The notes under the pieces were generated by a model. The model was not told the DNA's origin and made no database searches. It saw only the letters and a list, made by a program, of their open reading frames with translations. The position numbers were made by a program, and so were the translations under genes. A DNA stretch of 64,000 nt from Isurus oxyrinchus (Eukaryota): assembly GCA_026770705.1 (NCBI GenBank), contig JANJGN010000034.1, forward strand, positions 6,634,001 to 6,698,000, in the 5' to 3' direction. Shown one piece after another: positions 6,729-61,333 of the stretch (positions within the stretch are counted from its first letter, which is position 1; each line of letters starts with the position of its first letter).

Positions 6729-6755
6729 AAAATAAGCTTCATGCCTGTGAGCGAG
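6729..6755 (+). CDS. Coiled-coil microexon, class B (27 nt): ENKLHACER
   Basis: tttatttcag|AAAATAAG..GAGCGAG|gtaaat; phase 1-1; paralogous to exons at 14186, 25385, 31597, 39520 and 61307. Confidence 0.8.
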
Positions 6756-7672
6756 GTAAATAAAATTCTGCCTTTGCAGTATATTGTACAGCCATTCAAG
6801 GCCTCTCCTATGCTTTGTTTCTAAAGCAAGCCTATCTCCGGAGTTTTTATGCTCCCATGGGCAGCCTGGAATGGAACAACATTTTTGTTGTTGTTACAGT
6901 GGCTTAAAAGTAGTTCCTGTGTTGATGTAACATGGGGAGATTTATTAGCAACTGCGTGTCAAATCGGTGGCCCTGTAAGATGTGTACCTATGCTCAAGGA
7001 TAATTCGACAGGGTCAAAGCCCATGAACGACCGCACCTCTCACACAGTTTAATCACCTTGCGTACCCCTTTTGGCACCGTAAATAGATACCACTGAAAAG
7101 CATCATTCAACCCAACAACGGCGCAAATAAGAAGTTAACATAAAATTGGCCAACAATGTTTGATTCATTATCTGTCCATCTTCCCTGCACCAGGAGAGAA
7201 AACCCCAATGAATTGTTGCTCCCCCTTCTAACATTAAAGATGTAGAGTGGAGAGCACGCCGTCACGGCTGGGCGATAGGAAGTACCCTGACTCAAGATTT
7301 GGGAGCCAAATCTCCTGTAACATCAGCACCAGTGCAGTCCCCACATCCGGCTCAAAGCACAGCTGTGCATTTCGCTAAACTCTTCTTGACTTTCCAGCTG
7401 GGTTAAAAAGATGCTGAATTTTAGGCTATGTTCTTAATCTTTACCCCACCAATAGGATCAATATTGATTAGACTTGTTCGATATGTGTTAATTGAAAGTG
7501 AGCGCCGATTCGCATTCCTTAAAGGTTTAATTGAGCCAAGGTGTAGTTTTGTCGTGCAGCAAAAAAAAAATGTCCTGGCTCACATTGTTGACGGACCATT
7601 TCTTTGGCAAGGACATTTAGAACCAATGACTTTTTCGCCTTGCAACATCCTTCAATTCACTATTCCTTACAG

Positions 7673-7699
7673 AACTGGTAGACAAATGCAAAAGCGATG
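7673..7699 (+). CDS. Microexon, class C (27 nt): ELVDKCKSD
   Basis: ttccttacag|..GATG|gtaagt; paralogous to 31719. Confidence 0.85.
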
Positions 7700-9092
7700 G
7701 TAAGTAGGAAAAGACTTTGATGTAACGCAATGAGCCTCTGTAGCATTCTAATCAGGGTTCATGCACAAAACTGGTTACAATTTAACCCTGGGTCGCTTAC
7801 GTGTTATAGGAAAGATTGCAGAGACCTTAGTTGCAGAGTTTGGTAGACGGGTTTACGAGGGAATTCGAAATTTTAAATTCCAGGCTTTTGGCCTGAATAC
7901 GTATAGTGACTGATGTTTGAAAATCAGGTAGACCTGTGTAGAGCGTCATATTTGGAGATGGACTCAGAATTTACAGTGTTGTAGAACCAGAAATGTTTGC
8001 AGAAATAGGGGACGACGAAACCATGATGATATTTCAAAACAGCACCTAAATCCATGAAATCAATGCGCTGCTGTCCTTGGGGCAATGTATGATTACGGCT
8101 TGCTGTGAGTTCTATATGAGCACAATGTTTTTGGGCGACCTCATGTTTCTGGAACGCAGGACATGGGAAGCCACCACAACGTGCAATAGAATGGGAAAGT
8201 TCATATGTTGCCATTTCCTGACTGAGGCACTCACTAGTGTATGGCATGAGGCTCAGAAGACATTGCACTATTTTTCGGAGTTGGAAATTACCATTTTGGC
8301 AAGAAGCGTGTATGTTGTTAGAATCCAAATGCGAGGTTATAAAAAATAAAGCTAGAACTTTTGCCATGTATCTGGCTGAACCAAAAACAGCTGAAAGGGA
8401 AGTTGATGGTGTTGAGGAATAAGGGTAGGATGTGAAGCAATCGGTGGATTAAGGAAGCACATTGATCCCAGTGGTGTTAGGGATTAAGAATGTTCCAGTG
8501 GTAGGCAAAAGCGAGGACACGAAGGGAATTGATAACAATGATGAGCATTGTAATTGACGCATTACCTGACTACGGACAAATGTATGCCAAAGTTAAGCTG
8601 CTTTTCAAATTCAAGGCACTTTATTTTTTCAAATAAGTGCGAGATTATGAGACATTGTTTTTATTGTCACAACGGGCAATGGCACAGCAACGGTGCTATC
8701 GGCTTAGCTCAGGATTTCCATCATCTTCTCAATAGAATAGGACAACCAATTGAATAACGAAGGATTGCACAACTTAAAGATAGGCCTGTATCATGCAATT
8801 GACCCCATCGCCCTTAACTGCAATTCTCCGCATTGCACAATGGCAAGCCTAACTGACATGAAGCAGATTTAGGAAATTGACATTTGAATAAAAATGTATG
8901 CCATGTAATGTTAAACAGAAATCTTTACAGAAAGATCAAATTGATTATTTCGCTAAAACATTGGGCCAACCTAATGTCATTGGTTATAAATCTATGCATG
9001 ATTATATTGTATATTTATGCTGGCCTAATGCAAAATATCCTGCACTGCAAAAAAAATGCTTTACTAAGATTTGCTCACTTTCTACATTGCAG

Positions 9093-9119
9093 CGCAAAGG
9101 CTACTTGAGAAAGATTTAG
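9093..9119 (+). CDS. Microexon, class D (27 nt): AQRLLEKDL
   Basis: tacattgcag|..TTAG|gtaaaa; paralogous to 15430, 26299, 34875 and 57323. Confidence 0.8.
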   Translation, partial: RKGYLRKI

Positions 9120-9205
9120 GTAAAATAATTGATTCTTAGGGTTATTCGCCAATTTATTGTAGACATTATTCGAATGCTATGGACTTGGAATTCTCATTTT
9201 TTCAG

Positions 9206-9256
9206 AACATACGAAAGTTCTATCATACTGTCTCGCAATTTATGCGTAGCTGGAAG
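9206..9256 (+). pseudogene. Class E 51-nt exon with in-frame stop: EHTKVLSYCLAIYA*LE
   Basis: Strong sites ttttttcag|..GAAG|gtaaga; phase 1-1; TAG at 9247-9249. Confidence 0.55.
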
Positions 9257-10056
9257 GTAAGAGTAGGCACAGATGATTTGTTTTCTTATGCATCATGAGG
9301 AAACAACCCTTCCACCTCTCATCCATGCCAGCATCCCTTCAACACCCCCACCGCCAACACACCACCCCTTCATGCCCGTTCGCTCGAAGACATGGACCAC
9401 CCTCAGAATTTTCATTAACAGCAGCGAAAAATCCTATGGGAAATAGGCAAAGAAAAAAACTCTCCAAAATTACCTTCCGAAACTCAAGAGATAAGGAGCA
9501 GTCCAATAAATGACATGGTTGAACGGTGAATCTCTATAAAGGCACAGTCTTTTGAGTATATTCCCTGCCGCAGTGAAGAGCCAATATAGCTCCTCTTCGA
9601 TGATGTACAAACAGTCTACCAACAGTGAATAAGCTAGTTACTGCAGATGCTCACTACTCTCCAAGAAAATAGGAACACGCTAGCATGCAATGTATTCTGA
9701 CCACTTAAAAACTTCAAGTGGCTGTTCACCGATCCTCTCGCTCCACGTAAACAGGAATTGTTTATCAACAGATACATTATGCAGGGTATCCGTCATGGTA
9801 TAATACCTGAATACTCCTGAAAAGAGAAATATGTTACCGAAGCTTATCGTTTTGCTCACATGAGGGCAGAAGCAGCAATTTCAAGCGGCCACGACAAATT
9901 ATTGATATCATTTTGCTTATTAGGTGGCAATGCGAATCTCTGTAGCCAAGGACTTGCAATGGAGGCAAAGAAAAAAAAATCTGTAGGCGTCCATGCTCTC
10001 CGACAATTACATCAATTGCACAAGGTTTAAACATTTTCCTTTTGCTCGCAGAGCAA

Positions 10057-10252
10057 GGCTGCCCTTGTAAGAATGCATGTCTCTTATATGAGCCATACAT
10101 AAGTGATGTAATGTGTGCAACTGATTATCTGACTATCTGAAATCTCTCACTCAGTCAGAGGCTGCTCTTGTAAGAATGCATGTCTCTTACATTACCCATA
10201 CATAAGTGACATAACGTGTGCAACTGACTATCTGACTATCTAAAATCTCTCA
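10057..10252. repeat. Imperfect tandem duplication, period 103 bp (2 copies)
   Basis: ggctgcYcttgtaagaatgcatgtctctta..cataagtga..gtgtgcaactga.tatctgactatct.aaatctctca starts at 10057 and again at 10160. Confidence 0.9.
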
Positions 10253-10999
10253 TCCTTACTATTTATCTAAAATCGTTTGCTATGGAGCTTTAGACATATG
10301 TAGGATTTCTCTGCATCTGCTAGCTAATTGCTAGCATGGGCTTGTTCCTGTATTCTTCCGCTTATGAACAACAGAATTAACATGCTATTTGATTCGATCA
10401 CCAGCCACTGAAAAAAAAGGCATGTATGCCTTCCTAGCACATGCAGTAAAATTAATGCACTCACAATGTTTTGGTAGGTAGGGCATATCTTAGGGCAGAC
10501 AGAAGGATCAAGTTAGTGCAAAATGCCACTCGCGTACTCTCTGCATAATGGCAGAGTTAAAAAAGGTCTCTTTGACGTGCTTTTCGTTTATGTTTTGAGA
10601 TATTTAATCTACCTAGGATAATTTGAGAAAGAGGGCACTTTTCAAGTCAGGAAGTGGCCTTTTCCCCAGTTGCGTATTTTAAATATAAGCACAATGAAAG
10701 AACGCATGGCTTGACTCTGTATATGAATGCGGCTGATAAAAATGCAAATAGCGTTCTAGCCATTTGCTCGCCTTATAAACTTTGTGCAAAAATATAGCAT
10801 TTCTAATACAACACTTGCAGGACAATGGCTATCCTGACCACGCCATTGTTCGCTCACAAATGAGCCAACGCCTGCCACTTATGCATCCGAAAGATGTCTA
10901 GTGACCCAAAAAATGTAAAGCATATACTGAAAAAGAACAGCATGTTTAAACAAAATTATACCATACTGCTACTTTGCACTGGCTATGCGAATGGTTAAT

Positions 11000-11600
11000 C
11001 CCATTATAATTATACTGCCAGCCCAAAGAGGATGTACCACTCAACGGATCTACGTCATTTGAATTTCAGCATATGCGCGTCCAAGTTTATGATCCGTAAA
11101 TGGCAGCGATTCAATAATCGAATCAAACAACATATTCGTTTGGTTGTTCCCAATATGCAGATGACATGCCATGCTCAACTAGCCCGCGTTTGCAAAGCTC
11201 AAAAGAAAATGGCTAATCTTAGATGGGTCTGCGTGATTTGGCAGCACTTACTGATCAACAGCAATTCTGCTAATAGCTACCCTAACAACCAATTTAAAAT
11301 AATCCTTTGAACTCGGACGTGGCTCATTTATGCTTGCCAGGGATGGAACATGATAATATTTCGGCCTCTTGTCTGTTTGCTTAATTGCATTGGAACTCGG
11401 GGACCTTAAGATTTCCCCATTGTGTTAGCAATGGAAACGACTCGACAAATTAGAATCGACTCGGTAAGCAATCAGCACTTGTTTTGACTTTTTTTATCCT
11501 TATAGTAGATGATTGTTTGTAATATTGCTGTTCTATGTTTATCCTGATCAATTCAAATGCAAAGCTTCGGCAAATTGTCACTACTTTCAGTAATCTAAAA
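11000..11600 (+). mobile_element. Penelope-like element 3' fragment (same family as 44.85-46.5 kb)
   Basis: Translation RIKQH...IWQHLLINSNSANSYPNNQFKII is typical of the C-terminal half of Penelope GIY-YIG domains. Confidence 0.6.
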
Positions 11601-12429
11601 GTTATGTGCTATCAAGCGTGTATCCTTTATAGATCTGTACTATACCACAATGCAGTCGACGTCGCTTTACAGTGATTAGAGCAAAAATAATTCACACATC
11701 TCAGCTGGTGATGGTGTTAAATTGCAAAATATTCTGGCAGCGGTCCAAGGAATTTATCCAATGCGAGCGTGTCATTCATAGTAAGGAGGCAAAAAATTGG
11801 GCACGATGTTCTAGATGTTTTATGCCCAGCTTCGAAAAAAATCGCACTTCGAAAATATGTTGAAGCCTTCTGTGAAAACCATTGAGAGTCCTTTTAGCTT
11901 CGGCTAGAAAATTTGTGCATTATTAATGTACTTTAACTTTCATGGAATTGAGATTTATTTTGATCTATTGTTCCTGGATGGGTGAATTATGAACCAGCTG
12001 ACGATAATTGATAGCGAACATTTGACTCATGATCTATTATCCTTGGACCACGTGGCTACCAGAATGCTGGATTATGAGCTAAGTGGATTCCAGCCTTTTA
12101 GGCCCGGCAATATTTTTAACCTAGTCGGCCTTAAACTAAGATATTTCAGTGCATATGCAGGGATTTTCTTCTAGAAAGGGAATTTTAAGAACATAATAAT
12201 GCAAGCAGTCGCGAGACCTGCCACACCATTGGCTTCTATGATGGTTGTCTCGCATACAAGTCGTACATGTCTGGTTTTGATCTCTTAGCTCCAGTAATCA
12301 TGCTCAATTTTAAACTTGTCAACTGACGACCTGTTCTGTTGGGGTAAAGTCCTAGATAGATGGCGCAAATGATCTTAATGAAGAAATCCAGGCATTGCTC
12401 ATGTAGTTATTTTTTAAAATCTTTTTTTT

Positions 12430-12700
12430 TGTTCATTCATGGAATTTTGCCGCCGCTGGTTAGGCAAGCATTTATTCTGCATTCTTAACTTCCCTTAAGA
12501 AAGAGATGTCGTGTTGCCTTCTTGAACCCACTGCACTCCATGTCGAGTATGTACATCCGAAATACTGTTAGGGTGGGAGATCTAGAAATTTGAGCCACAA
12601 ACAGTGAATTAAGGAGGAAGTCAGTATAGTGAGTGGCTTCGAGGGGTTCTTCAATGTGGTGCAGCTCTCAGGTGCCAGTTGCTCTTCTCCAAATAGATGC
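12430..12700 (-). mobile_element. HER1/CR1-type LINE 3' tail fragment
   Basis: Reverse complement of the same 3' tail (ttcattcat..gcatttatt..cccttaagaa..ttcttgaac..ctgttaggg). Confidence 0.65.
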
Positions 12701-12990
12701 TAGTGATCCTGCTGCTTGTTCCGGAATTCCATCCAACAAGATGATTTTGTTAATTACTTTATCTATCAGATTGAATCACTTCGTCAATATAAATAGATTC
12801 GAGAGTGGTCCAACTTTCTAAACTCAGCTAATGTAATTCAACTGTACCCAGCTAGCCCGTCTGTGCCAAATTGAACAAAATATCTCATTGCCACCAACAG
12901 CTGATCGGAGACACATAAGTAAGAATGTCCAAAACAGCATCTGCGGAAAAAAAAACGACAAATCAAGGATGAATTGGTTCTGTTTTCCAG

Positions 12991-13026
12991 AATTGGAAAA
13001 ACTGAAGTCAGATCTGCAACATGCAG
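12991..13026 (+). CDS. Microexon, class A (36 nt): ELEKLKSDLQHA
   Basis: tgttttccag|..GCAG|gtcagt; paralogous to 21897, 28263, 35744, 58075 and 59976. Confidence 0.85.
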
Positions 13027-14185
13027 GTCAGTGCTAGTTTGATTGTGAATAGGAATTTTCAATTTCCAAGATTATCACGTGCTAATTTGAAGAAGTGTAA
13101 TTATATTTCGAGTTTGTAATCATCTGCACTTTGCTTGCAGGTGCGGGAATCAATTCTACTGAAAAAAAGGCAGAAGCCGATATTGTTCTTTATCGACATG
13201 CCTAATTAGTTCTACTCTCCTGCTCTCTCAACATAGGCATTAATTAATGTGTCTAGCCAACCTCCATTTGAAAGTTAACATTGAATTTACTTACAATTCA
13301 ACTTAACCCTGGTCACGTCAGATACAAGCAGCACGAGTAAAACAATAACATTACGTCATTTTTCCTCTTCTACGCTTGCCAATTCCTTTAAAGCTATGGG
13401 TTCTGGTCCACAAAGCTCCAACCAGTACAAACAGTGTTCCCATTACCCCATTCAACTATGTCCCTCCTGCAACTTCGCTAAGTCCTGCACATTATTTCTA
13501 AATTATGGTCCGAGGTATGTTCAATGGTTCAAATGGGTCCAAAGCAGAAACCTGCCACTTATTTGCCTTTCATCATGTGTTATGCTTTGCATGACTCTTC
13601 TTCAGAAGGCAGGATGTATTATGCTTCTTAACATCATGGCGAACATAACCTACATTGATCAAATATTTCATACTGTGCACATCTTCCTTCACCACTTGTA
13701 AAATCATGCACCCTTTTTAAATGTAAATTAAAAAATAATTGAACCTATAATTAATGCATGTAGAAGGCAGCATGCCTTAAAACATATAGTGTACTCCATC
13801 ATGAAGGCGGAATTATATTTAGCTGGGTTGCAAAGTAGATTGGACTGGCTTCGCCGCATGTGCTACATTCCATCCTTGAGGAGCAGAAATGCGAATGTTG
13901 CAGGAATCACTACTATCCACACGGAATTTTACATCATGTGTGCAAGCTGTGTCTTGCTTTCAATGCATGCTTGCCACTGAACCGAAATTTCCAGTATCTC
14001 TACGGGGCGCGAAACCAGCGGGGGTACAATTTTTAAGTAAAATGAAGTTGAGATTTTCCATTGGAATTGGTGCACATTGCTTTGTAACTGCTCACCTTTA
14101 TTTCACGGAACTCTATTCAGATTGAACTAATACACACTCAACAGAATTATATGAAGCTTTTCATTCTAATTGTGTTGCATTTCAG

Positions 14186-14212
14186 AAAACAAACTTGTTT
14201 GGTGTTACAAAG
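14186..14212 (+). CDS. Microexon, class B (27 nt): ENKLVWCYK
   Basis: gcatttcag|..AAAG|gtaagt; phase 1-1. Confidence 0.85.
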
Positions 14213-15429
14213 GTAAGTATGAATGATTATTGGGTTTAGTGTACACTGTGTTCTGGGAAGCGTACAGGAAATGCAGCATTCTTTCTGAAAGTATACTCGC
14301 GATTATTTTTCATTTAGACATGCAAGAAAAGTGTAAAAGTGATGGTGAGTCGAATGAACTGCATACATTCACACGGGTTTCCGTTCCCACTGCGGTTAAA
14401 CATTTAGAGTGTTTGGTCGGGCGAGGAAAGGCGGGACCAATGTCTCGATGGCCTTATAGATGCCCTCCACCATATTGAGTCCGGATGATTTGAATAGAAG
14501 TGGAAAACGGTCAGGGTGTAAAACGGGCACCCAATAAATACCGCCACTGTGTTGCTCCACTGCTCATATACAACTGAAGTTCTATCTCAAGGAGACATAA
14601 GCTGAGCAATTTGGTCCTCCATTTAAGTGACTTCTCTAAGGATAAAATAAAAGTCGTGGTATCCGCAGAAATTTGAAGTATCAAAACGGCCTTTTGTTTC
14701 ATTGTCGCCGATGGAAAAAGGCAGCGATATGATTGGGCTGGCGATTTCATTGATATGGTTAGTCCATTACAATTGAATGACCCGTGCCATCAAGGTCTGT
14801 GTAATAACGAGTCACTTGTTGGCCTTATCTCCAGTTTATACATCTTAACTATGTGGAAGCACAAGAGTTGTGCCTGGTCATCAGGATCAAAACCAATAGA
14901 ATGGAATATCTGGTGGACACGTAACTCGGGAAACATCCCTTGGTGACATTGGACTTCAAGATTAATGTCTCCCCCATTGTGTAGCCAAAGTACTGAGAGA
15001 TGCAATCCTATCCGCAGATAGTCCCGTCATTATATGACTAAATCATTAGAATCTTTGTATATACTTAAAACAAAACAGTCGTTAACACAATCCAAGTTCA
15101 GAAAAGTGTCCAGCCATAATTTCAATTTGTTATCCCTCGATATTTAAAGAGGCCCTCTTGTCCAATCATCCTAGTAACACAACTTCTCGGCTATTATTTA
15201 GAATTTTGCCAGTGAAACAGTTTCCTTCATCGAAAAGGCATTTTCATTTTCCGAAGTTTGGTACCATCTAGATAGTGTTCTTAGCAGAGGATGCAGGATC
15301 ATGCTCTGCTTTCATCCAAAGCTCAGGCAGCATAGGCAGGATGGGATGATGCTTTCCTTCCTGCAATGAAATAAATTCAATAAGTGTATGGCGCAAATTA
15401 ATGATGTATTTTGACTTCTGTCATTTCAG

Positions 15430-15456
15430 ATCAACGGCTACTTGAAAAAGAATTGG
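15430..15456 (+). CDS. Microexon, class D (27 nt): DQRLLEKEL
   Basis: gtcatttcag|..TTGG|gtaaga; phase 1-1. Confidence 0.85.
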
Positions 15457-16477
15457 GTAAGATGATTCATAACAACGCTACGAATTATACAGATGCATTA
15501 GTATGTGTTATCTGGTTAAATAGAAGACCATTCATACAAGGCTTTGCAGAATAGAGAACGGATTTCAACACCGCAGATGGAAATGCGTCACTTCACATGC
15601 AGAAACATGAAAATGAAAGGGCGTCTAATCCCGAAATCGGACGATTGAATGTTGCAGTCCAAGGCCAAAAAAACGAAGATCACGTTCAAGGCTAATACAG
15701 CCGTTGGGGTCTTGCTGCAGTGCTACACTCTCGCAGGTATTTGTTGCCTGATGTCGCATTTGTGGCGTTGATTTGGCTGACCACTGACAGGAATATAAAA
15801 TATCCAAACTGTTAATTTCAAAACAGACCAGGAGTCCTCCATCTCTTTATCCAATAGTCCTAACTCATCCATAAAAATTTGCAAGGGAGCTCTAATTGCA
15901 ATGCCAGCATAACGGTCAGTCTGTTCCCTCATTTCTGTTCTAAATGGCTAGGTGTAATTGTCATCTTTATGTGCTCCGATTAACACGGAAAAAAAAAAAC
16001 AATCGATGTTATATTCCGCTACATGTTGCAGTCTTTGCACAGAGAATGGTGATGAATAAATTTGAATAAAATGCTGAGGGACCGGAATGAGCCCATCCTT
16101 TCCTCGAACCTGCTCTGCGTTTTCACAAAAGGTTGTTGATTCTCAACATTAGCATTGTTTCTGCTTTGAAACCCGATATGACTTGAGTGCAACAATGAAC
16201 AGATTTCAGCCTTGAATAATTTTAATAGTAAGGAAAATAAAGCCCAATGATGTTCACGGTCCCTACTGTTCACAACTCTCAACTTGGTAAATGTGTGATC
16301 ACTATTTTACCGTGAGATTCAGGCTTTTACTTGTTATACTCTATTTAAATAACAATAAAGAATTTAGCCCCATCTGGAGGTAATGAGTTGAACATGGCTA
16401 GCACAAATTTGCTGCTAGGCAATCATTATGGCCAGCATTAAAAATGTCACTCGTCACAAAAACAAGTTCCCGCAAAG

Positions 16478-18329: not shown

Positions 18330-18720
18330 CGTTAATTATGGTTATTTTATCCAATGCTTTATCTCCACATTTCGCCTATTTCAAACCCTTCCCCCCACGC
18401 CGCCCCCAGGGCAATCTGTCATTTGCTCTTCCTGCTTTCTACTCTTAATGTCATCATTTGCACATGCCTTAGCTAACATCACCGCCGTCAACACCCATTT
18501 TTCCTTTTGTCTACGACATTTTTGGCAATCTTTTCTTTGGCTCCAGATATCACTGGCCCTCTATCCAGCTCTTCATGTACCAGCCCCTCGACCAGCTTAT
18601 CTTTCACCTCATTTCTATATTTCATTCCTTGCGATGAAGACTCGAAACGTTAACTCTATTCCTCTCCGCAGATGCTGTCAAACCTGCTGAGTTTTTACAG
18701 CTATTTTGGTTTTCTTGCAT
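18330..18720 (+). mobile_element. Penelope-like 3' terminal fragment
   Basis: Ends gactcgaaacgttaactct..ctctccgcagatgctgtcaaacctgctgagtttt, the same terminus type as 24.2 kb. Confidence 0.7.
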
Positions 18721-21896: not shown

Positions 21897-21932
21897 AATT
21901 GCAACAGATGAAATCAGATCTTCAAGATGCAC
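21897..21932 (+). CDS. Microexon, class A (36 nt): ELQQMKSDLQDA
   Basis: gcttcccag|..GCAC|gtgaga; close paralog of 12991 (KSDLQ). Confidence 0.85.
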
Positions 21933-25384: not shown

Positions 25385-25411
25385 GGCGAAAACTGAAGGA
25401 CTGTCAAAAGG
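25385..25411 (+). CDS. Microexon, class B (27 nt): (R)RKLKDCQK
   Basis: tatttctcag|..AAGG|gtaaat; phase 1-1. Confidence 0.8.
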
Positions 25412-26298
25412 GTAAATCAGGACGAACGATGCCGTGTTTTAACTATTTGAAAGTCCATAGATTTGATGGCTGCTTCCATATGGACTTTTCACGCATTTTT
25501 ACTTCATGCAGAACTGCGAGGAAACACCAAGAGCGACAGTAAGTCACACGTTTCAACCGCATTACATATAGTAAATAGGAAGCGGGAGGGTCTACTACAT
25601 TCACAGAAATGGTGACCGTTCAAAATTTTAAATGCGTGGACATTCGGAAGAAATTTGAGATTTGAGGGGAAGAAAGTCTTTTTAACTCCCGCGGAAAATT
25701 CGTGGAGCACTGTGTAAAAACTGACAGCAATCTGATTCTGGGATTGAATATCAGGTGTGGAAGTTCGATCTCATACGCCTCTCTGGCTTTACCATAATGG
25801 AAGTCGTTTTTTTTTTTATTTTCCATACAACGCTCGGTTGTGCAGAATAGGAATACCAGGAAAGAAATGCCAACAGATTATATACAGGAATTGCAATGTG
25901 GGTGGGTATTTCTTTTTTTAACAGTGGATAATTGAGGCAGAGCAATTTGGACATTGTTTCCCCAAGCATGTGAACGAATCAGAGCATAGACGATGTCGCA
26001 ATTCTGACGATAATGGTCCCTTCAGCAGTCTTGTGTCCCTGCTGAGAGTCAGTTCCGTTAACGGTATATTCGGTGAATCTAATTCCTCTGCCGTGAAACG
26101 TGTCATCTAGAGTCCACGCTTATGCCTGTGAAGTTGAAACAGTGGATGGGTTATTAAAATAATACTCTACAAAGCGGCTTTTAGGTTTAATATTTAAAAG
26201 GATCAGCAACATTCGACCACGACGCGAATGACTGAGTGGACAAAAAGTAAGTCCATAGCGATTTTTTGATTGGAGTATTATTCTTTCTTCTATTATAG

Positions 26299-26325
26299 AT
26301 TGGAAGCTTTTAGAAGGGGAAATAG
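26299..26325 (+). CDS. Microexon, class D (27 nt): DWKLLEGEI
   Basis: ttctttcttctattatag|..ATAG|gtacaa; phase 1-1. Confidence 0.8.
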
Positions 26326-28262: not shown

Positions 28263-28298
28263 AATTGGAAAATGTGAAAAGGAAGCTGAATAATACAG
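28263..28298 (+). CDS. Microexon, class A (36 nt): ELENVKRKLNNT
   Basis: ttgattttcag|..ACAG|gtaaag; phase 1-1. Confidence 0.85.
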
Positions 28299-31596: not shown

Positions 31597-31623
31597 AAGA
31601 CAGGTTACGACAATGTGAAGAAG
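31597..31623 (+). CDS. Microexon, class B (27 nt): EDRLRQCEE
   Basis: tttttcttatacag|..GAAG|gtagta; phase 1-1. Confidence 0.8.
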
Positions 31624-31718: not shown

Positions 31719-31745
31719 AGTTGCATAGAAAGTGCAAAACTGATG
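31719..31745 (+). CDS. Microexon, class C (27 nt): ELHRKCKTD
   Basis: tttttttcttag|..GATG|gtgagt; 95-nt intron from the previous exon. Confidence 0.85.
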
Positions 31746-34874: not shown

Positions 34875-34901
34875 AAGAAAGATTGCTGGAAAAAGATATA
34901 G
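34875..34901 (+). CDS. Microexon, class D (27 nt): EERLLEKDI
   Basis: ctccctggtaaag|..ATAG|gtaaag; phase 1-1. Confidence 0.8.
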   Translation, partial: KKDCWKKI

Positions 34902-35743: not shown

Positions 35744-35779
35744 AGCTCGGGAAAATGAAAAAAGCCCTCAATGATGCAG
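35744..35779 (+). CDS. Microexon, class A (36 nt): ELGKMKKALNDA
   Basis: ctttgctttacag|..GCAG|gtgaag; paralog of 58075 (KAL). Confidence 0.8.
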
Positions 35780-39519: not shown

Positions 39520-39546
39520 AAGAAAAGTTGGGCAGATGTGCGACAG
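39520..39546 (+). CDS. Microexon, class B (27 nt): EEKLGRCAT
   Basis: ttttctcttgcttag|..ACAG|gtaaat; phase 1-1. Confidence 0.85.
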
Positions 39547-39644: not shown

Positions 39645-39665
39645 TTAAAGGCGATTCATCAGATG
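39645..39665 (+). CDS. Microexon, short class C (21 nt): VKGDSSD
   Basis: ggttttcacag|..GATG|gtaagt; 98-nt intron after the class B exon, like the 31597/31719 pair. Confidence 0.75.
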
Positions 39666-44545: not shown

Positions 44546-44849
44546 TGCTGATTAGAATACAAAGATTTGTTTGGTACAAGAACATTTACAACACAATTTG
44601 TTTACTGGTTTCGATGTTTCCATTTATCAACCGTTAAAATGTAATTCCTAAAACTAAGGAGTATGCCTTTGTAACACGAGAATTCTGAAATTAGGAGTGT
44701 TGCAGCATTTTTTTTTCGAACTTCAGAGTTTTACATTGTTTCCTGCAGCCCACGGTACTAGTGCCACTGGGGTTTTCAAAAATGATATGTTTATTTCCTT
44801 CGTGTGGTCGGCACAAATTAGAGATCAGTAACTAACATGAATTTGAAAT

Positions 44850-49030: not shown

Positions 49031-51249
49031 TGTGGCCACACAAATACTGCTTTTATGAGCTTTTGAGACAATGAAGAGTCAGTGAACTGATTTTAAGAAA
49101 TGTCCTTCGGCGCTGTAAATTCCCTCATCTAACACTCATCTGTCTACTTAATCTGTTGTCAGTTACTGCGATGTAATGAGTCTCAGACTTATAAATAGAA
49201 TTTTCAACGCTGCAGCACACTCTTCTATGTCCCAGCACATGCAATACACCCATTGTTGATTCCAAAAGGAAGATGGATGCAGTGATCTAACAGTTTCATC
49301 AACCACATTATCGCCTGTGACCTCGGGTGGGGAGGAAATTGAATTGGATTGCCTCTCTGCTCCTAATTTCTTCTCTGGAAATCCAGCCGCTCCTTTGTTC
49401 CCGATCTTGCAAATTTGACTGAGGAGAACTTTGTTGTGCAATTAGTTCGAGAGGCCTAAAGTGGAGGGCAGCAAATTCGAAGGTAATTAAAACACACCCC
49501 CTTTTTACGCACCATTTGTGAGGGAGCAGGTGAGTTTAAAGGTCCAAGTCACTTTCAGAAGCCAGTGAGACGATACCTGCATAAGGAAACTAAGCCGGTT
49601 GGAGGATGTTCGTTTCAGCATCGGAGAGGCGGGTCGAATTACATCGGGGCTGCAGGGTGTTGTCAAATCTGGGTGGCTGCCGGGTATGGCTGGGGCCTGT
49701 GACGGTCGGGAACGCGCCCTACTCGGTCGAGGGCCAGGGTAGTCGGGGAGCTGTGGAGGTTTGGAGGGGTAGGGTCTAGGGGGAGCTCAGTGAGGATTCT
49801 GCGGAGGTAAGCAGAAGATTTGTCCAGGAGCTGGAAATTGTTTTACTTTTTCATAAGGTTTCTTTCCTGGGTCACTGATGCTGTAAGGTAGTCCAAAGCA
49901 TTCAATGTTTCCCATTTAAATCGCATTGTTGGAAGGTTCCGAATTCAATGCCCTTGGCGAAAGGAAGCTTCAACTTCCCCGGCAATTGTTACCTGCGAAA
50001 TCCCGGGCTTTGTTCTTGATGCTGGTTTGGTGGGGTGGGGGCTGGTGGGGGAGGTGGGTGCGTACGGGCCTGATGGTCGATACGCCAGATATACTGTCCT
50101 TCAACTCGGAGATCGACCTATTTAACTTGTATTGGTTAATCATTGAAAAACTGTTAACATTGTTTTACAAGTTTGCATATGCCTTCATTCGTTGAATATG
50201 GAACTCTATGTGTGTCTCTTCAATGGGAGAAATGTCATTGCTCTGTCTTATTTTCATGCCAAATGTACAAAACTGGCACGTACATGACAATACTGGAAAT
50301 GACTGCATCTGTGCTGCCCACAAACAGAACACAAATCTACACCAAACCATTATACTTCATTCCTCTAATCTACATCATCTGCAAAGTGACAGAATGTGTG
50401 GTCGACAAAGTGGCAGTTGCACTACAATGCATTTCTTAAAAATGCTCAGTTTGTCTTCCACCCGTATGACTCAGCTTCAGATCTGTGGGCAGTGTTATTC
50501 TGAACATGGACAAAAGAGCTGGAAATAACAAAGGAGACCAGAGCATTTTTTATTGCAATAAGACGCAATTTGGCAAACTGTAGGAGTCACAGTAAGGCTG
50601 AAAGAGAATGGTGGAAACTCCAAAAATTGGCGACATAGCTAGAACAATTGCCATTATAGTTGTTGGAATGCAGCATATAAACGACAGGGCATCGTCACAG
50701 GAGTTTGTCAGTGAGGTGTCCGATGGTCAATGATCATCAGCTGCTTGGACAGTGAACTTCCTTCCATCAAATGATCAGAATTGTCCATTTTTGCTAATGT
50801 TTGCTTACGGCTTAGAATAATTCTGACATACTAAATACGGAGGCAGTCCGCTTAGAGAAAAATTATGGACAATACTCGGGCTTGGGCTCTTTAGTGGAAA
50901 GAACGTTTCGCCGGGTGCTGCTGTCAGACAATGATGAACTCCTGCCAGATAGATTATATCCTCCTGAAATGCTAGGGCAAAGGATTTAAATACTCCACCT
51001 CCACCACCCCACCTCCCATCCCCCGTCCCCACACCCCCATCCAGCACAAATATGTCAGGGTATACCATGTATGAGCAATATAACTGGATGAGGGATTTTC
51101 AAGAAAGAAACATACTGCAGATTCTGGAAATAAAAAAAAATGGAATATCGCTGGCATTATCTATGTTAAAGTTCACAGTCCGTTTGTCTCTTCTTCAGAG
51201 AATTTAAATACTGTGATAAGAAGTGTGGGCCAAGGGATCGGAAATTTGT

Positions 51250-51850
51250 GGCGATAAAGTCACCCACATATTCCCAAAGCCGCCCAGGAATCAGACACTA
51301 TTCATGAGTCTGGCAGAGCACATTTCAATTGCCTGCATAAACGCAGCTTCAATGATACTTGAGGCTTAACTTAAGCAAAGTGAAAAGAGTGCTTTTGTAC
51401 GGCATTCCATCCACTGTAGCAGTTATAAACTACCTTCACCAGAGGCGCACAGTTGCAGAAATGTTTACCATATGTAGGATCTACCAGCGGCGCACTCCAG
51501 CAGCAACGTGCACCAGCTTCAAAATGCTCTACAGCGATTCACATAACATCCTTCGACTGCTTCATCCAAACCCCCAACCACAACCCCCAAGAAGAACAAA
51601 ATAAACAGACGCATGAGAACAATATTACGTACCAATTGCGCTTCAACTCTCGCAATATCTGGTCTTATAATTCTGCTGTTTTTCCTTCACTGTCGCTGGA
51701 TCAGGTCGTGGGTCCCTTGCTGGCAACATTATAAATGTAACTATTCAAGCTGGACTACACCTGCCCTAGAACCACTTTTTGCCTATTGGGAGTGGACTAC
51801 AAATGTTAGCCATGTCAGCAGCCCTCACATTCTTGAAATAAATAAAATAA
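51250..51850 (+). mobile_element. HER1/CR1-type LINE 3' fragment, highly diverged
   Basis: ccttcaccagaggcgcacagttgcag..ttcgactgcttcatccaaaccc..ttccttcactgtcgctgg..; ends in an A-rich tail. Confidence 0.6.
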
Positions 51851-54800
51851 ATCTCTACATATAGCCGGTCCTTAAACCAAACTATCAAAAAAGAAATCTA
51901 CAACAAACATTCACCATTTCAATTCCTGCAACACCTCCTTCATTTTTTTTCATTCTAAAGTAGAAAAGTATGGTACTGAGTTGATGAATAAATGAAAGAT
52001 ACCTCATTCAAAATGTGTGATTTTTTTTAAGATTTGACAAATGTATATTGAAATTCAGTGCTAAGCCCCATTGAGGGTTTTGAGAAACGTAAAAAAATTT
52101 CTGCCATGAAGCTCTATGGCTTTATCTTCAATCACTGAAAGTGAATAATATTTTCACATGATCCTTTCACCGCCTTCAGGGGCTAAATACGCGCCATATG
52201 CCAATCATAGCTCTCATAATCAAACTGAAGAATTAAATAATTATTGTTATGGTTGCAATGATGTCCTGGCTTATCAGATCATACAGATCTTCCTTCTTAA
52301 CTGTTGTACCAGATATGTTGAATTATTTATCCTGATTGTGTATCCATCCTGAAGTTTTCCTAGTCTAACTAATTGTCATGTTCAATATTAAACATTGGTT
52401 TCTGACTTACAATCTTCGATGAGGTATACTGGTACTCGTTAAATGGTGCCCCGTCAATTTCGTCATCAACCTTGCATGTAATGTTGACCATGCCTCTCAC
52501 CAGCAGCAATTACGTGGCCCTCCTCTCGACAAACGTATTGCACAACCTATAACACTAAATATGAAAAACAAAGCAGACCGTTGCTTGACGGAGCTTCAAC
52601 ATTTTATGAGGAATCTAAGATACCAAGTTGTCCTCTAAGGTTTTGAAGAGCTACTGCTGTGCCAGATCTAAATGAAAAAGCGACAAAGAGAAAAAAAAAA
52701 CAGTAACTAGAAAAATCATGTGACTTATCAATTGGAAAATTGCATTTTTCTCACTCAATCCTCCTGTCCCTACCAGCAAGGCGCGCTCAAAAACAAAATA
52801 ACATAAGAGATAGGAGCAGCAGTAAGCAATTCGGCCTCTCGAAACCTCTCAACATAAAAGAGCCGGCCCTTGCAATTGCGTTCGATTATCCTTTTTCCCG
52901 GGACACATTATGTTCCAGTTAGCTTTTAAATTTAGGATATTTTGGTAGTCCTTTGGCCTATAATTAGAGATGTTCAACTACATGCAGGTCGAACAAGATT
53001 TGCGGTGGTGGGGTCAGAAAGGTGCACATTTAACGATGATCTCACTGCAAATGTTGACTGAATTTACCACCCACGTCACGCTTGAACCACTTTTTGGCAA
53101 ATGCACTGCTACGCTCTTTACAGCACTTGCAAATTTGAGTTCTAGTGCATACTTCTCTTCCCTAACAGATTGTTGTTAATGTGTGGGTCAAACACTTATT
53201 ACAAATGCTAAGGAAGGAAACAACATGAGAGCCAAATTTTTCCATTTCAGAACTGGACAAACTGCGAATAGCACTAGACGATTCAGGTGAGGATATCACT
53301 TTAACGCCAGAATCTATTTCTGGTGTTTGAATTGTATTGCATGGGGTCGGGGGTCGTTGAAGTTTTATAGGGCTAGAGCAAAGCAGGCAAGAATGATTTG
53401 TCACCGGTCATTAGAACTATTTGTTCTTCATAACTGTTGAAGTAATTATATCTGGACTACTTGGCAAAAGGAAAGGCAATGCATTTATAGACTTTTGCGA
53501 TGGTATGCCTGATTTCGCGCCCTTTTGTCGACGTTCAAGACCCGTACAAGTAAATATAGATTAATTGATATGCATGTCCTTTAAAGTCAAGCGGACGACT
53601 ATCCAGCACCAGTATAACAGAAGCTCTGTGCTTTCTGTCTGGATTTGTGCTACCTCCCAGCATGAATTTCAAAGGTTGACTTCTAAAGCACAAATACAAT
53701 GTAATGCATGACTCCAATATAGCAGTATTAGCAAGGAAGACTCGTTTTATGTGCTTTAAAATTATCTTTTTGTAGAGGACAAGCTGCGGAAGTTTATTCA
53801 AGGTAAAAAGGGGATAACACTTCAATGACTTTCCTTTTACTTTGGCTCTTAAACAGCTATTGTGGAAGCAATTGAGAGCTTGTATTTTAAACCAGCCTTA
53901 ATAGCAAATGGTTCTTGCTGCAACAGCAACACAGACTTGCTGCAATTTAATGAACTTTGTTATAATCAATTTTGCTCTACAAATATTAGGTCAGATATAT
54001 CTTCCTTAGAGGGGTGCAACGAAGTATCACTGAATTGATTATTGTGAGAATGTGATCGTCCTTTGGGAAAGATAGAATAACGGCAGCTAAATTGCCTGAA
54101 GTCTTTTTTTAAAGTGGTGATCTCAGGAATCGCATACAATTCGGATGGGGTATTTCTGGAATTGTAGTTATGTTCACCCTCCTTGGTGAATATCGCTGTA
54201 TATGCACATAGGAACATCAGTAAGTTAGTCACACACTGTTGCAATATTCAACACAATCGTGGCTGCTGTGGAAGAAAAATAAATCAAATAGCCTGTATTG
54301 CCCGATCTCTCTGACACTGTTTGTCGTACACAGGCCTATCAGTCACAGTTTTAAATTTCGCAGTTATTCTTGCACGACCCGCAAATTTCAGCGTTATGTT
54401 ACGATAGCCTACCATTGGCAGCGTGTAGAACTGTTTCCTAATTCCACTCCTGAAAGGCCTGCCTCTCTTGTTTTATTCGAAGCTGCTTGGTCCTGCACTT
54501 CTCAATCATAGTAAATGTTTTTGCACAGTCGATGCTATCTGGAGCTGCAAGTTATATCTAAATCTTTAATCGCTACCTATCTTAACTTTCTAAGTTCGAA
54601 TCAGTAACAATTTTTATACCAAGCCATGGCTTTGCATAGAGCTTGTCTTTTGCATCCATGTATACTGTGCGAAAAGACATAACGGCCAAATTTTATCGTT
54701 TCCATAATTATTATCTGAAAATGTCAATTAATGTTCTATGATTTAAGAATCTGCACTCCCACCTTATGATGTACCGTGGATCATGGTTTAGGGCTGAGAT

Positions 54801-56041: not shown

Positions 56042-56059
56042 GCCTTCGGAAAGATGATG
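56042..56059 (+). CDS. Microexon, class C variant (18 nt, GLRKDD; ancestral 27-nt form 56033-56059, EHAGLRKDD)
   Basis: Perfect donor GATG|gtaagt. The usable acceptor is catgcag|; the position expected for a 27-nt exon reads ttctcatgg (AG>GG). Confidence 0.6.
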
Positions 56060-57322: not shown

Positions 57323-57349
57323 ATCTGCGGCTCCTTGAACAAGCTTATG
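57323..57349 (+). CDS. Microexon, class D (27 nt): DLRLLEQAY, GC donor
   Basis: ataattgcag|..TATG|gcaagt; clear RLLE paralogy and the expected position between a class C and a class A exon. Confidence 0.7.
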
Positions 57350-58074: not shown

Positions 58075-58110
58075 AACTATACAAATGTAGAAAAGCCCTG
58101 AAAGATTCAG
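58075..58110 (+). CDS. Microexon, class A (36 nt): ELYKCRKALKDS
   Basis: tttttctttttcag|..TCAG|gtaatg; phase 1-1. Confidence 0.85.
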
Positions 58111-59213
58111 GTAATGAAACAAAACAATTATCATTTCGAAACGCGCACATGTATCATGAGTTCATGTTCTCCAATGTACGCAACTCCCGATGACTTAAAT
58201 GTCCAGATGTGGATACGGGGACCGGACAGTGAACAAAGATTGCATGAACTGGCAGTGGACATCATTGAACACAACATAACAAATGATGCATTAATTGCAG
58301 GAAACTGGGGTGATCTCAAAATTAAAAACATGTCAATTAGAGAAGATGCCATGAATCGCTTCTTCCCATGCACAGTAATATAAAACAGACTGTCTCTCTC
58401 AAAACTTTGTTGAGGATACGTTTTGTTTTGAAACTTTCAAGCCTTAGATTAATAAAAGTTATACATTAAATTAGGAATAAATTCTGCCGAGGAGGGACTA
58501 AGATAAATGACAGGCTCAATCTAATTAATTGGGTATTGTGTTAGAATGGCGAAACGGTGTGATTCATTCCCATGGTCCTATGAACCTATATAAAGGAACA
58601 CGCCGTTAGAGCTAAGTTAATGTTAAGTAGTGTTAATACACAACAGAGAAAAACGCTTGGCAATAATTGGATGAATTGTATCATTTGTCACGTGCAACCA
58701 TTTCTCATGCAGCCTGCTAACATTAATGGTTATGAAAATCTAGAGTCTAAAGTTTTTTTTAATATCCACTAGTGCAAGACTGTAGTGGAAAAGAACACTG
58801 AAACTTCACTCCATAACACGAAGGCAATGTCAGGCACATTGGATTTGCAAATGGATCTGTCATGAGTTTTGCGGGACTGGTACGTACAGCCCAAACTCTA
58901 GGCACAAATGAACATAGGGCCAGATCAAGTCGGCTGTGCATAAAAAGTTCATTCACGTATTGCTTTATTTTTATTTCAATGGAAATGAATATTGTGCATG
59001 ATGTATGAAAGACGTCTGATGTGCTATTGCCAATTTGGCGCTGCTGTCCAAGCTGACTGTCAATGTTAATTGAACTGAAAATCAGACGTAGTTTATAACA
59101 CATTACCAATGAATTCCACGTATTATATGTTCTTTTGTATGTGTGCTTAAAGACACCTGTTTTGGTTTTATTTGTTATATCATTTAATTTGATTATAATT
59201 ATTTCCTTCAAAG

Positions 59214-59237
59214 ATGAGACGAAGAAAACAAGTGACG
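59214..59237 (+). CDS. Microexon, short class C-like (24 nt): DETKKTSD
   Basis: atttccttcaaag|..GACG|gtaagt; phase 1-1. Confidence 0.7.
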
Positions 59238-59975
59238 GTAAGTTACATTAAGGATGCGGAAAATGCGGCCTGGGTAAGAATGGTCACCAGTCTTAGCTCG
59301 TAAACGAGAGTGTTTCATGTTCCTACAGCGTGGGTTTTTTAAACTTTCGTTAAGAAATGTGCATTTATGCCGTCAAACGTTGTCTCCAGGCAACCTTATT
59401 TAATGTTGCATAACACTTGCTGCAACTTCTCTAAACACAGTCACAAATGTAATTACAGTGGGAACCTTGAAGAAATTAAATGGACTCCATACAAATCACC
59501 ACTGATCTTAATATGCACCAAGTCCCATGCACCCGTCAGCCACATTGCCCACTGAGAGGTTCTGGTTAAGAATGTCATATTCCATCGATTTTGGGCATTA
59601 TCTTCTGTGTGAGCTAATCTATCCCTGGTGTCTTGTTGCACCATCCGTTTCCCCTCTTCCAAAACTACAAAGCTCCCATATATGTACACTTATAATCACA
59701 GAGACTCTTGCTGCTGCTTTGTTCAAATGGCTGTGGACATCTCAAAAACACTCCCCCTCTATTCCTTTAAATCAATCCCTAAAATCTAATAACTGGCCAT
59801 AACCTTGTTATGATATCTGTTTACCTGCATCCACGTCACGCGTTGGTTGATGTCACTGCTTGTGAAGTGCATTCGGATTTTTTTTTGCAATACTCAGCAT
59901 CCTATTGCTAATCAAGCTGTTGTTAATGCTTGGAACAAAAATCTGTCTCATTGTTGCGTTTCTTTTCTTTTTTAG

Positions 59976-60011
59976 AACTCATAGAATTGGGCGATCTGAT
60001 AGGCAAACTGG
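59976..60011 (+). CDS. Microexon, divergent class A (36 nt): ELIELGDLIGKL
   Basis: tcttttctttttttag|..CTGG|gtgaga; phase 1-1. Confidence 0.75.
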
Positions 60012-61306
60012 GTGAGAATAATTTATTTTCAGCAAATTAGGTTGCAAGGCTTATCATCGTTGCCTATTTAGTAACTCCTCAAAAGCTAATAACTTCAAAA
60101 TGACAAAGTAGAATTCACGCTCCAGCTGATCAATTTCAATTGTATCTGACCGTTATCATTTAGATTTATTACTCCTGCCTGAGAGGCTAATGGATAATCG
60201 GTCAAAATACTCATTGTGGAGCTCAGATTTAGTTTTGGCAGCACTACAAGCCTTATGTTCCTGCTCGAGGTTCTTTCGAGTGACATGCCCCACCGTTACC
60301 TGACGCTAAGGCGTGGACGATGGTCACTGCGCGAGTGTGATGAATGCTTGAATTAATTTTTCTTGTCGTTCTTGACTGGGACAAAAAAAAAGATCTCAGT
60401 GACTCCAGGAAACAGTAAATGTGTTGATTATTCGTCCAAACAGCACATTATAATTGGGTTCCGTTTTTATTTTTTTTATAAGGCACAATTATCGTCCTGG
60501 AGATTTATTACATGGTGTCTTTTCAGCGTGTTTCCATAGACAGATAGTTAGCTACATGAAGCAGACAAACATGCCAGCTGCAGGATTGACATTGAGCTCA
60601 GAAACATTATGAATTTGTGGAAACGCAGAACTGAAAAAAAATCACGTGAGGTACTCTCTCTGCTACACGGGATTGCCGTAACACATGATATATAATCGGT
60701 TCGAGTGCGGAGGACTGCAAACCTATGGGTGCTGAGCTTAATCTAGCTGAGTTATGAACATTCGAGATTTTTTTTTTTTGGAGCGATATCTGAGAAGGGC
60801 AGCTGAAACGATGAAGAAAGCTCGAGCCAGTTGGATTTTAGAGTAAGGAGCGTTGAATTTATTACTCATAGAAGATCGTGCGGATAATTCATCGGGATTA
60901 TATAGAGTGGACATCAACACTTGTGGCGTGCGGATGGGGAATAGAAATGGAAAATTCAGTTTGATATTAAGAAGATACGATATCTTCTTTCCATCAGAGC
61001 GATTTGGCTACGAATTTTTCACCTTCAGGAAACAGGGAAAACTGGGCCTTGAATTTCTTCAATGTTGATTTAAATAATTTTTGGTTGACAGGGAAGTCCA
61101 GGCTTCTGCCGGCAACATGAAGTGCAATTGAGGGCACAATCAATAAGATTTGGCCGTAATGAATGAACGAGCATCGTACAAGGGCTTAATCGCGATGTTC
61201 CTTTGTTACTAAAGAACTATTTTTAAGTTGCATATTCAATTCATTTCTTTGGAGTAATAAGTTTTTGCATGTCTTTGGCTCTGCTAATGCTATATTTTTA
61301 TTGCAG

Positions 61307-61333
61307 AAGATAAGTTGTCCCCAACTAATAAAG
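61307..61333 (+). CDS. Microexon, class B (27 nt): EDKLSPTNK
   Basis: tttttattgcag|..AAAG|gtaaaa; E-D/N-K-L start as in the other class B exons. Confidence 0.75.

Follow-up and report, generated by a model that had tools for sequence, protein, structure and literature searches.

A predicted megabase microexon array ending at a B30.2 exon in Isurus oxyrinchus

The window, a 64,000-nt stretch of Isurus oxyrinchus contig C34, contains microexons that comparison with a paralogue confirmed as real, conserved coding exons. It covers only a minor central portion of a predicted microexon array of ~1.04 Mb that ends at a B30.2 exon. The array probably forms one gene (probability roughly 0.58) for a soluble, anchor-free coiled-coil dimer, a rod with two B30.2 heads that would serve in the cytosol as a long tether or scaffold. 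Judged by its sequence, the gene is best read as built like the tails of BG proteins and butyrophilins, not as a member of that family. The preliminary description of a hidden cartilaginous-fish gene, in which symmetric phase-1 microexons encode a coiled coil and which grew by cassette duplication, was borne out.

Microexons, cassette and coiled-coil register

Both strands of the window were scanned for short AG..GT candidates using splice signals alone. At the strictest cut-offs, candidate lengths were divisible by three in 20/22 and 8/8 cases on the + strand and in 2/5 and 1/2 on the - strand. The 22 phase 1-1 microexons reported previously, including one with a GC donor, were all found by similarity and paralogue-guided passes (matched by eye), along with four that had been overlooked (Table 1). 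The resulting 26 exons (747 nt, all phase 1-1, 18 to 36 nt) contain no stops, and a junction stop would arise in none of the 650 ordered pairings of exons. A 27th exon overlaps the window start. Compared with a colinear paralogue 1.08 Mb upstream (C34 5.556-5.628 Mb), AG and GT/GC were kept at 26/26 exons vs 74/153 intronic AG-27-GT control pairs, and exon identity was 90.9% (679/747) against a background of 81.6%. For the 26 exons, dN was 0.066, dS 0.191 and dN/dS 0.35.

Table 1. Microexons in the window, in positions of the 64,000-nt stretch. S, splice-signal scan; H, similarity pass; P, paralogue-guided pass; K, splice sites kept in the paralogue; N, absent from the preliminary description.
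Class	Length (nt)	Position	Strand	Evidence	Remarks
A, 3' part	36	1..23	+	H	starts 13 bases before window; array continues upstream to C34:6459146
B	27	6729..6755	+	S, P; K	
C	27	7673..7699	+	S, P; K	
D	27	9093..9119	+	H, P; K	
A	36	12991..13026	+	S, P; K	
B	27	14186..14212	+	S, P; K	
C	27	14318..14344	+	S, P; K	N
D	27	15430..15456	+	S, P; K	
A	36	21897..21932	+	S, P; K	
B	27	25385..25411	+	S, P; K	
C	27	25512..25538	+	S, P; K	N
D	27	26299..26325	+	H, P; K	
A	36	28263..28298	+	S, P; K	
B	27	31597..31623	+	H, P; K	
C	27	31719..31745	+	S, P; K	
D	27	34875..34901	+	H, P; K	
A	36	35744..35779	+	S, P; K	
B	27	39520..39546	+	S, P; K	
C, shortened	21	39645..39665	+	S, P; K	
A	36	53251..53286	+	S, P; K	N
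B	27	53776..53802	+	H, P; K	N
C-like, shortened	18	56042..56059	+	S; K	
D	27	57323..57349	+	H, P; K	GC donor, also in paralogue
A	36	58075..58110	+	S, P; K	
C-like, shortened	24	59214..59237	+	P; K	
A-like	36	59976..60011	+	S, P; K	
B-like	27	61307..61333	+	S, P; K	last in window; array continues downstream

The cassette consists of four exons, B-C-D-A (117 nt, 39 residues), with four clean copies in the window. Cassettes of 90 and 117 nt had been described; the 117-nt form stands, but the 90-nt form in the window was an artefact of two missed class C exons. The coiled-coil periodicity reported earlier holds in modified form, not as plain heptads but as a 39-residue repeat with a hydrophobic period of 3.54 (39/11; power 2.76 vs 0.87 at 3.5). 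Genomic exon order beat 995/1000 shuffles, and the class C cysteines fall on the core stripe. The 248 residues contain 9 regularly placed cysteines. Any exon can be skipped in frame, as proposed, but the power of the hydrophobic stripe, 2.83 with all exons, fell to 1.46-1.78 when one was removed; removal of exon pairs or a whole cassette left it at 2.18-3.33. Free combinatorial tuning would thus be limited by coiled-coil register.

A cassette of 39 residues is close to the 40-41 residues per actin given for tropomyosins (284/7, 248/6 and 161/4) in the passage cited (10.64898/2026.07.06.736648), and the soluble BG tail is described, in the passages cited, as displacing tropomyosin and regulating actin-myosin (PMC5938342, PMC4046983). 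Even so, an actin-matching repeat, by which the rod would align with actin filaments in the manner of tropomyosin and the BG-derived zipper protein, seems highly improbable: 39 is not 40-41, and only some parts of the gene show the four-exon cassette in regular form.

Extent of the array, twin genes and 5' ends

The array is not confined to the 55 kb originally described. A terminal B30.2/SPRY exon, for which a downstream search had been suggested, is present outside the window at C34:7496441-7496959 (Pfam SPRY, E 4.6e-12), and no B30.2 of this subfamily was found between C34 6.396 and 7.496 Mb among the 150 of 456 candidates scored. A microexon caller trained on the window's exons, 22/26 of which it recovers there, made 79 calls on the + strand of 342 contiguous kb and 0 on the - strand. 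In samples totalling 110 kb and reaching the B30.2 exon, the counts were 28 vs 0. Density was even, at 0.255-0.28 per kb over 1 Mb. Among the 79 called exons, 43 were 27 nt, 25 were 36 nt and 7 were 21 nt long. Exon classes shift along the array, from 21-nt exons at the 5' end (6 of the 7 called) through B-C-D-A cassettes mid-array to A-B pairs later. Internal promoters or polyadenylation sites could divide the array.

If one transcript spans the array, its ~260-300 exons, an extrapolation with 110 of the last 700 kb sampled, would encode 2,500-2,900 residues of rod. Translation may start within the first microexons, where an in-frame ATG occurs in one (C34:6459146), or shortly upstream of them. 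As has been proposed for BG tails, the chains would form parallel pairs; the class C cysteines would lie in the core stripe, and the rod is predicted to reach ~400 nm with both B30.2 heads at one end. Duplication and deletion of exon blocks probably changed its length in evolution; in the cell, skipping register-neutral exon pairs or entire cassettes would tune it. It is unlikely that the array, though real and coding, instead yields many shorter transcripts that arise at internal promoters and may or may not include the B30.2 exon, and no giant transcript. The drift of exon classes and the size of annotated relatives, 218-460 residues with alternative first exons, point that way, but a single strand, a single phase, the even density and a single terminal B30.2 exon do not. 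Moreover, the RefSeq model of at least one orthologue (P0008) appears truncated by automatic annotation, two bamboo-shark models are the B30.2 exon alone, and SPRY/PRY-only ESM Atlas clusters of 1277 and 1579 residues resemble a relative (0.92, 0.88), a lead only.

Five B30.2 exons on C34, all with microexons upstream on their own strand, mark five such predicted genes, with B30.2 identities among copies of 92, 56, 43 and 43%. The upstream sister gene covers 1.52 Mb from its first called microexon at C34:4877430 and has 370-440 exons by extrapolation; human titin has 363. On contig C21, a short paralogue carries this cassette too (36-27-27-27), in colinear order with RefSeq proteins of catshark and electric ray. 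The two C21 family members sit within a large B30.2 gene cluster. Near the 5' end, a 241-kb block present in the sister is cleanly absent from the window's gene, and could have carried its true first exon. This difference, and a search of the 5' end that found neither first coding exon nor promoter, would accord with a pseudogene that died recently, its first exon having gone with the block. Such a fate is scarcely credible given 26/26 intact splice pairs without stops, an open B30.2 exon (dN/dS 0.45 vs the sister's) and 22 kb of upstream region kept in both twins.

We scrutinized 990 kb for N-terminal domains, including the entire gap-free 62.7 kb between the preceding B30.2 exon and the first microexon and excluding 146 kb of the sister's 241-kb block. 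For Ig, a profile built from 10 BTN N-termini and run on ORFs of all six frames gave a best E of only 2.5, tblastn gave no match below E 0.4, and Pfam found none on 90/105 + strand ORFs of >=82 aa in the 5' gap, 15 low-complexity ORFs being excluded. For RING/B-box, a profile of 12 TRIM N-termini reached only E 0.19. Around the C21 paralogue, 88 kb contained no Ig or RING match. A heuristic scan, restricted to phase 1-1 exons of 60-200 nt, found 0 transmembrane-type exons in three 5' regions (62.7, 60.3 and 37.4 kb).

A secreted filament of cysteine cross-linked rods, with B30.2 as an outward recognition head, is very unlikely. The regular cysteines, a skate relative with a signal-like start and, upstream of the window's gene, two candidate phase-1 first exons of the ATG-hydrophobic type are in its favor. 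However, one candidate (C34:6421476) is outside the region shared with the sister, the other translates a dinucleotide repeat, and no such candidate occurs on the sister's own strand. Catshark, ray and chimaera isoforms begin without a signal segment, and the hydrophobic, signal-like starts of two database relatives (P0151, P0038) are probably intron read-in.

The B30.2 domain and its relatives

The best solved-structure match of the B30.2 was BTN3A1 (E 4e-20). In an alignment using the sister's domain, 92% identical to that of the window's gene, both His and two of three Arg at what we take to be the phosphoantigen-pocket positions are Ser/Gly and the third Arg is Lys; a BTN3A1-type basic pocket is not kept, and the domain may bind a protein target rather than phosphoantigen. 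A tree, midpoint-rooted only and with orphan rows picked by likeness to the query, separated 7 genome copies and 12 cartilaginous-fish proteins from 8 Ig-butyrophilins, including shark ones, and 22 TRIM-type rows (100/100 branch). Pfam detected only SPRY/PRY in 7 relatives, and no Ig domain occurs in the 12 clade members from databases (Pfam scans or precomputed domains), whose recorded lengths are 129-460 residues. Isoforms of catshark, electric-ray and chimaera relatives differ by 6- and 9-residue indels, two of which adjoin the boundary of a 36-nt exon.

The BG/butyrophilin membership put forward in the preliminary description was not upheld, with no Ig or transmembrane exon found and a B30.2 apart from the Ig-butyrophilins sampled. 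A membrane receptor of that type, with a huge cytoplasmic tail and its signal, Ig and transmembrane exons in unread DNA, such as that upstream of the entire cluster or in the sister's 241-kb block, is improbable. The BTN3A1 match, the phase-1 21-nt exons that open the array as in BG tails and the existence of shark butyrophilins favor it, and the DNA read leaves out both the 146 kb within the sister's block and the greater part of C34 3.81-4.10 Mb. Nevertheless, the DNA from the preceding B30.2 exon to the first called microexon showed no Ig or transmembrane exon in either twin, and neither did the 37 kb leading up to the C21 paralogue's first microexon with strong support. The sister's unread block is downstream of its first called microexon, and the Ig-less clade excludes the sampled butyrophilins.

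Comparison with known systems and significance

In chicken BG and the zipper protein, as in the shark array, the coiled coil is encoded by numerous phase-1 microexons whose first codon is split; BG exon number differs between genes, splicing changes length and a soluble tail form exists, according to the passages cited (PMC5938342, PMC4046983). These give BG genes 13-37 exons, mostly of 21 nt, with IgV and transmembrane exons and a UTR exon last (PMC5938342, PMC4046983); a signal exon stands before the IgV exon (PMC5938342). Relative to those passages, the shark array would have ~10x the exons, most of which are 27 or 36 nt long and make up a cassette of 39 residues, and it has a terminal B30.2. 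Ig and transmembrane scans of the DNA read did not find the BG signal, IgV and transmembrane exons, and 7/79 called exons are 21 nt, unlike a BG-type tail.

The shark gene shares with butyrophilins phase-1 heptad microexons followed by a 27-nt exon and then a terminal phase-1 B30.2 exon. It differs in that no IgV/IgC/transmembrane module was found, its B30.2 occupies a separate long branch, and the predicted rod has thousands of residues vs a few heptads. C-IV TRIM proteins (TRIM21/39/A33-type) also have a coiled coil then B30.2, but theirs is encoded by few larger exons, whereas that of the shark gene comes from symmetric microexons, without RING or B-box in the 990 kb or the 88 kb of C21. 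Guinea-pig enterophilins combine a soluble extended leucine zipper with B30.2 and lack Ig, but are mammalian, a few hundred residues long and built of plain heptads.

Auto-annotated coiled-coil and SPRY proteins of cartilaginous fishes (for example XP_038672306.1, XP_069775384.1, XP_055510696.1, XP_042191566.1 and GCC29436.1), labelled TRIM39/58/69-like or A33-like, belong to the same B30.2 clade and lack RING, B-box and Ig. Such proteins share the exon cassette with the C21 paralogue, and their marks, in-frame indels between isoforms and a coiled coil spelled out by phase-1 exons of 36 and 27 nt, were found. The models, 129-460 residues long, include several evidently truncated to the last exons and no megabase gene; we found no published study of these proteins.

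Annotation misses these genes because nearly every exon is <40 nt, and several 'TRIM-like' shark annotations would be mislabelled fragments. If one transcript spans the array, the gene would be among the most exon-rich in vertebrates, and a natural test of how the spliceosome joins hundreds of microexons in the right order and of whether exon skipping is limited by coiled-coil register, with the twin genes and short C21 paralogue as built-in controls. More tentatively, there may be an ancient cartilaginous-fish family of anchor-free B30.2 rods, some of them megabase microexon genes, acting as splice-tunable 0.4-0.6 micrometre rulers whose length is set in register-neutral blocks, with the sister equalling or beating titin as the vertebrate gene with the most exons. 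The family would put the microexon-heptad/B30.2 module to a third use, alongside those in butyrophilins and TRIMs and common to chimaeras, sharks and rays, and would bear on the origin of BG and butyrophilin tails.

Coding nature of the window microexons

When splice-site scores alone were considered, 20 of 22 short AG..GT segments on the forward strand had lengths divisible by three at the middle cut-off, compared with two of five on the reverse strand; a stricter first splice scan gave six matches. Similarity passes, together with comparison against a colinear paralogue 1.08 Mb upstream on the same contig (the sister), recovered all 22 exons of the preliminary description as well as four that it had overlooked, giving 26 exons and 747 nt in the window. 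All were in phase 1-1, their joined frame contained no stop, and none of the 650 ordered exon pairs created one at the junction. AG and GT/GC were kept in the sister for 26/26 exons compared with 74/153 control pairs, and identity to the sister was 90.9% for exons against a background of 81.6%. Exonic dN was 0.066 and dS 0.191, the latter near the intronic distance of 0.21. The protein sequence that these exons encode is under purifying selection, and that they are coding is close to certain; a fresh pseudogene is extremely improbable. Chance origin was ruled out by the strand asymmetry and the conservation in the paralogue, and a tandem-repeat or transposon origin by the presence of neither at the exons. 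The window introns carry repeats of their own (see table).

Features of the microexon locus in Isurus oxyrinchus (C34, contig JANJGN010000034.1; w, window positions; L numbers, stretches of the same genome)
Feature	Location	Strand	Remarks
Window	G000:C34:6634001-6698000	+	host genome 4.98 Gb
Overlooked exons	w 14318, 25512, 53251, 53776	+	
Short B-C introns	w 14213-14317, 25412-25511, 31624-31718, 39547-39644	+	
Long intron	w 39666-53250	+	13.6 kb, no conserved exon
103-nt tandem pair	w 10056-10252		
G run	w 22765-22820		
Short interspersed repeats	w 18634-18716, 22616-22752, 24140-24273, 24644-24777		some inverted
First called exon	C34:6459146	+	opens array
Terminal B30.2/SPRY exon	C34:7496441-7496959	+	ends array
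Sister B30.2 exon	C34:6395819-6396336		Pfam SPRY E 2e-13
Further subfamily B30.2 exon	C34 4.817 Mb	+	own-strand microexons, 27-nt exon just before domain
Further subfamily B30.2 exon	C34 3.474 Mb	-	as above
Further subfamily B30.2 exon	C34 2.709 Mb	-	as above
Twin difference	C34 6455835/6455840 vs 4850373/5091193 (L052, L062, L069)		241 kb, clean; further microexons in sister's block
TATA-like conserved block	near C34:6450860		
GPCR fragment	L048:1857-2582 (C34 6.416 Mb)		between twins; broken, rhodopsin family, 7tm_1 E 8.5e-5
V-set match	C34:13072277-13072594	-	5.6 Mb from gene
Internal segmental duplicate	L027:2383-7581, L028:1-5202 (C34 7.07, 7.15 Mb)		duplicated exons
Low-complexity tandem repeat	L077:7991-9493	-	several frames open for 300-500 codons; 10 kb before terminal exon

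Cassette structure and coiled-coil register

With the four added exons, the window resolves into four regular B-C-D-A cassettes (27+27+27+36 = 117 nt, 39 residues) followed by a more irregular run. Hydrophobic residues recurred with a period of 3.54 over 17 exons, in agreement with 39/11, as heptads interrupted by a single stutter in each cassette would give. Hydrophobic power was 2.83 at this period versus 0.87 at 3.5, and a plain 7-residue repeat was rejected accordingly. Power fell to 1.13 without the two missed C exons, and only five of 1000 exon-order shuffles reached that of the genomic order. Class C cysteines lay on the core stripe and those of class B at its edge; a secreted, cross-linked filament is nonetheless very unlikely. 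It had been proposed that any exon could be skipped in frame, which holds for the reading frame but not for the register: dropping one exon reduced power to 1.46-1.78, compared with 2.18-3.33 for a pair or whole cassette. The B-C intron was about 100 nt (95-105) in four of five cassettes, other introns being 0.5-13.6 kb; in a short paralogue on another contig of the same genome, C21, it measured only 155 nt. So short an intron may tie the two exons together during splicing. At the long intron the cassette order breaks (a short C, then A, with no D), as it does in the sister.

Extent of the array and its 5' end

The preliminary description reported exons spread over 55 kb. A caller trained on these same exons, which recovers 22 of the 26 in the window, extended the array in both directions, calling 79 exons on the forward strand and none on the reverse in 342 kb (C34 6.456 to 6.798 Mb), and 28 and none, respectively, in sampled stretches that total 110 kb and reach 7.4985 Mb. 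The array opens with six 21-nt exons and ends 1.04 Mb from the first called exon. By extrapolation, the gene would have about 257 exons, or ~303 after correction for the 22/26 recovery, and encode a rod of 2,500-2,900 residues (9.7 residues per exon), about 400 nm long, a coiled coil rising 0.15 nm per residue. The sister, whose B30.2 exon is 92% identical, is longer by a 241-kb block located close to the 5' end, spans 1.52 Mb and would have 372-440 exons (extrapolated from 282 kb scored); the totals for both genes are estimates by partial sampling, not counts. Human titin is reported to have 363 exons (PMC12198301). Division of the array among several shorter transcripts is possible, though rather unlikely.

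Between the sister's B30.2 exon and the window gene's first microexon lie 62.7 kb, which were covered whole and gap-free. Neither this stretch nor the rest of the 990 kb of DNA analysed matched a butyrophilin Ig-region profile (best E 2.5) or a RING/B-box profile (best E 0.19); a B30.2 segment within one query was detected, providing an internal control. Within the sister's extra block, 146 kb falls outside these 990 kb; it lies downstream of the sister's first called microexon. No transmembrane-type exon was found in three 5' regions. A membrane butyrophilin with its 5' exons in DNA outside the 990 kb is an unlikely reading. A genome-wide V-set search with 150 of 3319 candidates scored, which carries no weight for this locus, gave a single match on C34. 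The twins have 22 kb in common upstream of the deletion junction, a likely promoter region, and their alignment there revealed five conserved donors and the TATA-like block, but no convincing first coding exon. The first called microexon contains an in-frame ATG. No RNA entry was listed for window positions 6500-16000. In the 10 kb surrounding the B30.2 exon, four contig runs from the same species, of uncertain type, covered repeats but not the exon, a result that weighs neither way.

Relatives and predicted function

The nearest database proteins were models from cartilaginous fishes (skate, catsharks, bamboo sharks, basking shark, electric ray and chimaera), labeled TRIM-like, A33-like or, in one case, BTN3A1-like, and holding only SPRY/PRY domains. 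In a midpoint-rooted tree of 49 B30.2 rows picked by likeness, 12 of these database proteins and seven genome copies were split by a 100/100 branch from eight Ig-bearing butyrophilins and 22 TRIM-type rows. One C21 copy is close to the basking-shark protein, pointing to a lamniform source. The best solved-structure match was BTN3A1 (E 4e-20), although the positions that we take to form its phosphoantigen pocket were not kept in the alignment. Membership of the BG/butyrophilins, as originally suggested, fails on Ig, transmembrane and B30.2-clade evidence, and TRIM membership on RING/B-box and B30.2-clade evidence. On C21, one cluster at 82-118 Mb held 138 of the 150 B30.2 matches listed, and also two family members (89.72 and 91.35 Mb).

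The 36-27-27-27 cassette recurs in the C21 paralogue, which aligns colinearly with RefSeq proteins of catshark and electric ray. Isoforms of these proteins differ by 6- and 9-residue indels, two adjoining the 36-nt exon. Assuming that these models are RNA-based, they lend indirect support to splicing and skipping of such exons in relatives. None of 832 candidates in a homologue search was a longer protein sharing the single B30.2 exon. Among 83 matches to a profile search, only P0008, the RefSeq model of an orthologue, belonged to this clade, the rest being mostly fused TRIM/BTN models; this search, word-limited and capped at 2000 residues, returned no giant annotated orthologue. As a lead, SPRY/PRY-only clusters with lengths of 1277 and 1579 residues are listed close to a relative in the ESM Atlas. 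A literature search, with most subscription journals outside its reach, found no published study of this coiled-coil-B30.2 family; butyrophilins proper are reported in all jawed vertebrates tested (PMC12841164).

The window's gene is a real, selected and unannotated microexon gene, far larger than first described and a variation on a known design. In how it works it resembles BG/butyrophilin tails; those of BG reportedly comprise 13-37 exons, mostly of 21 nt, and one exists as a soluble actin-myosin regulator (PMC5938342, PMC4046983). A tropomyosin-like actin ruler is nevertheless highly improbable here. We favor, at a probability of roughly 0.6, a soluble dimer whose chains pair as a parallel coiled coil, with both B30.2 heads at the C-terminal end; we infer the single transcript, its start, the dimer, its location and its ligand. 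Such a protein would have grown by block duplication, of which the internal 5.3-kb duplicate (83.5% identical) would be a recent example, and would act in the cytosol as an extended tether or scaffold whose length may be tuned in register-neutral blocks.
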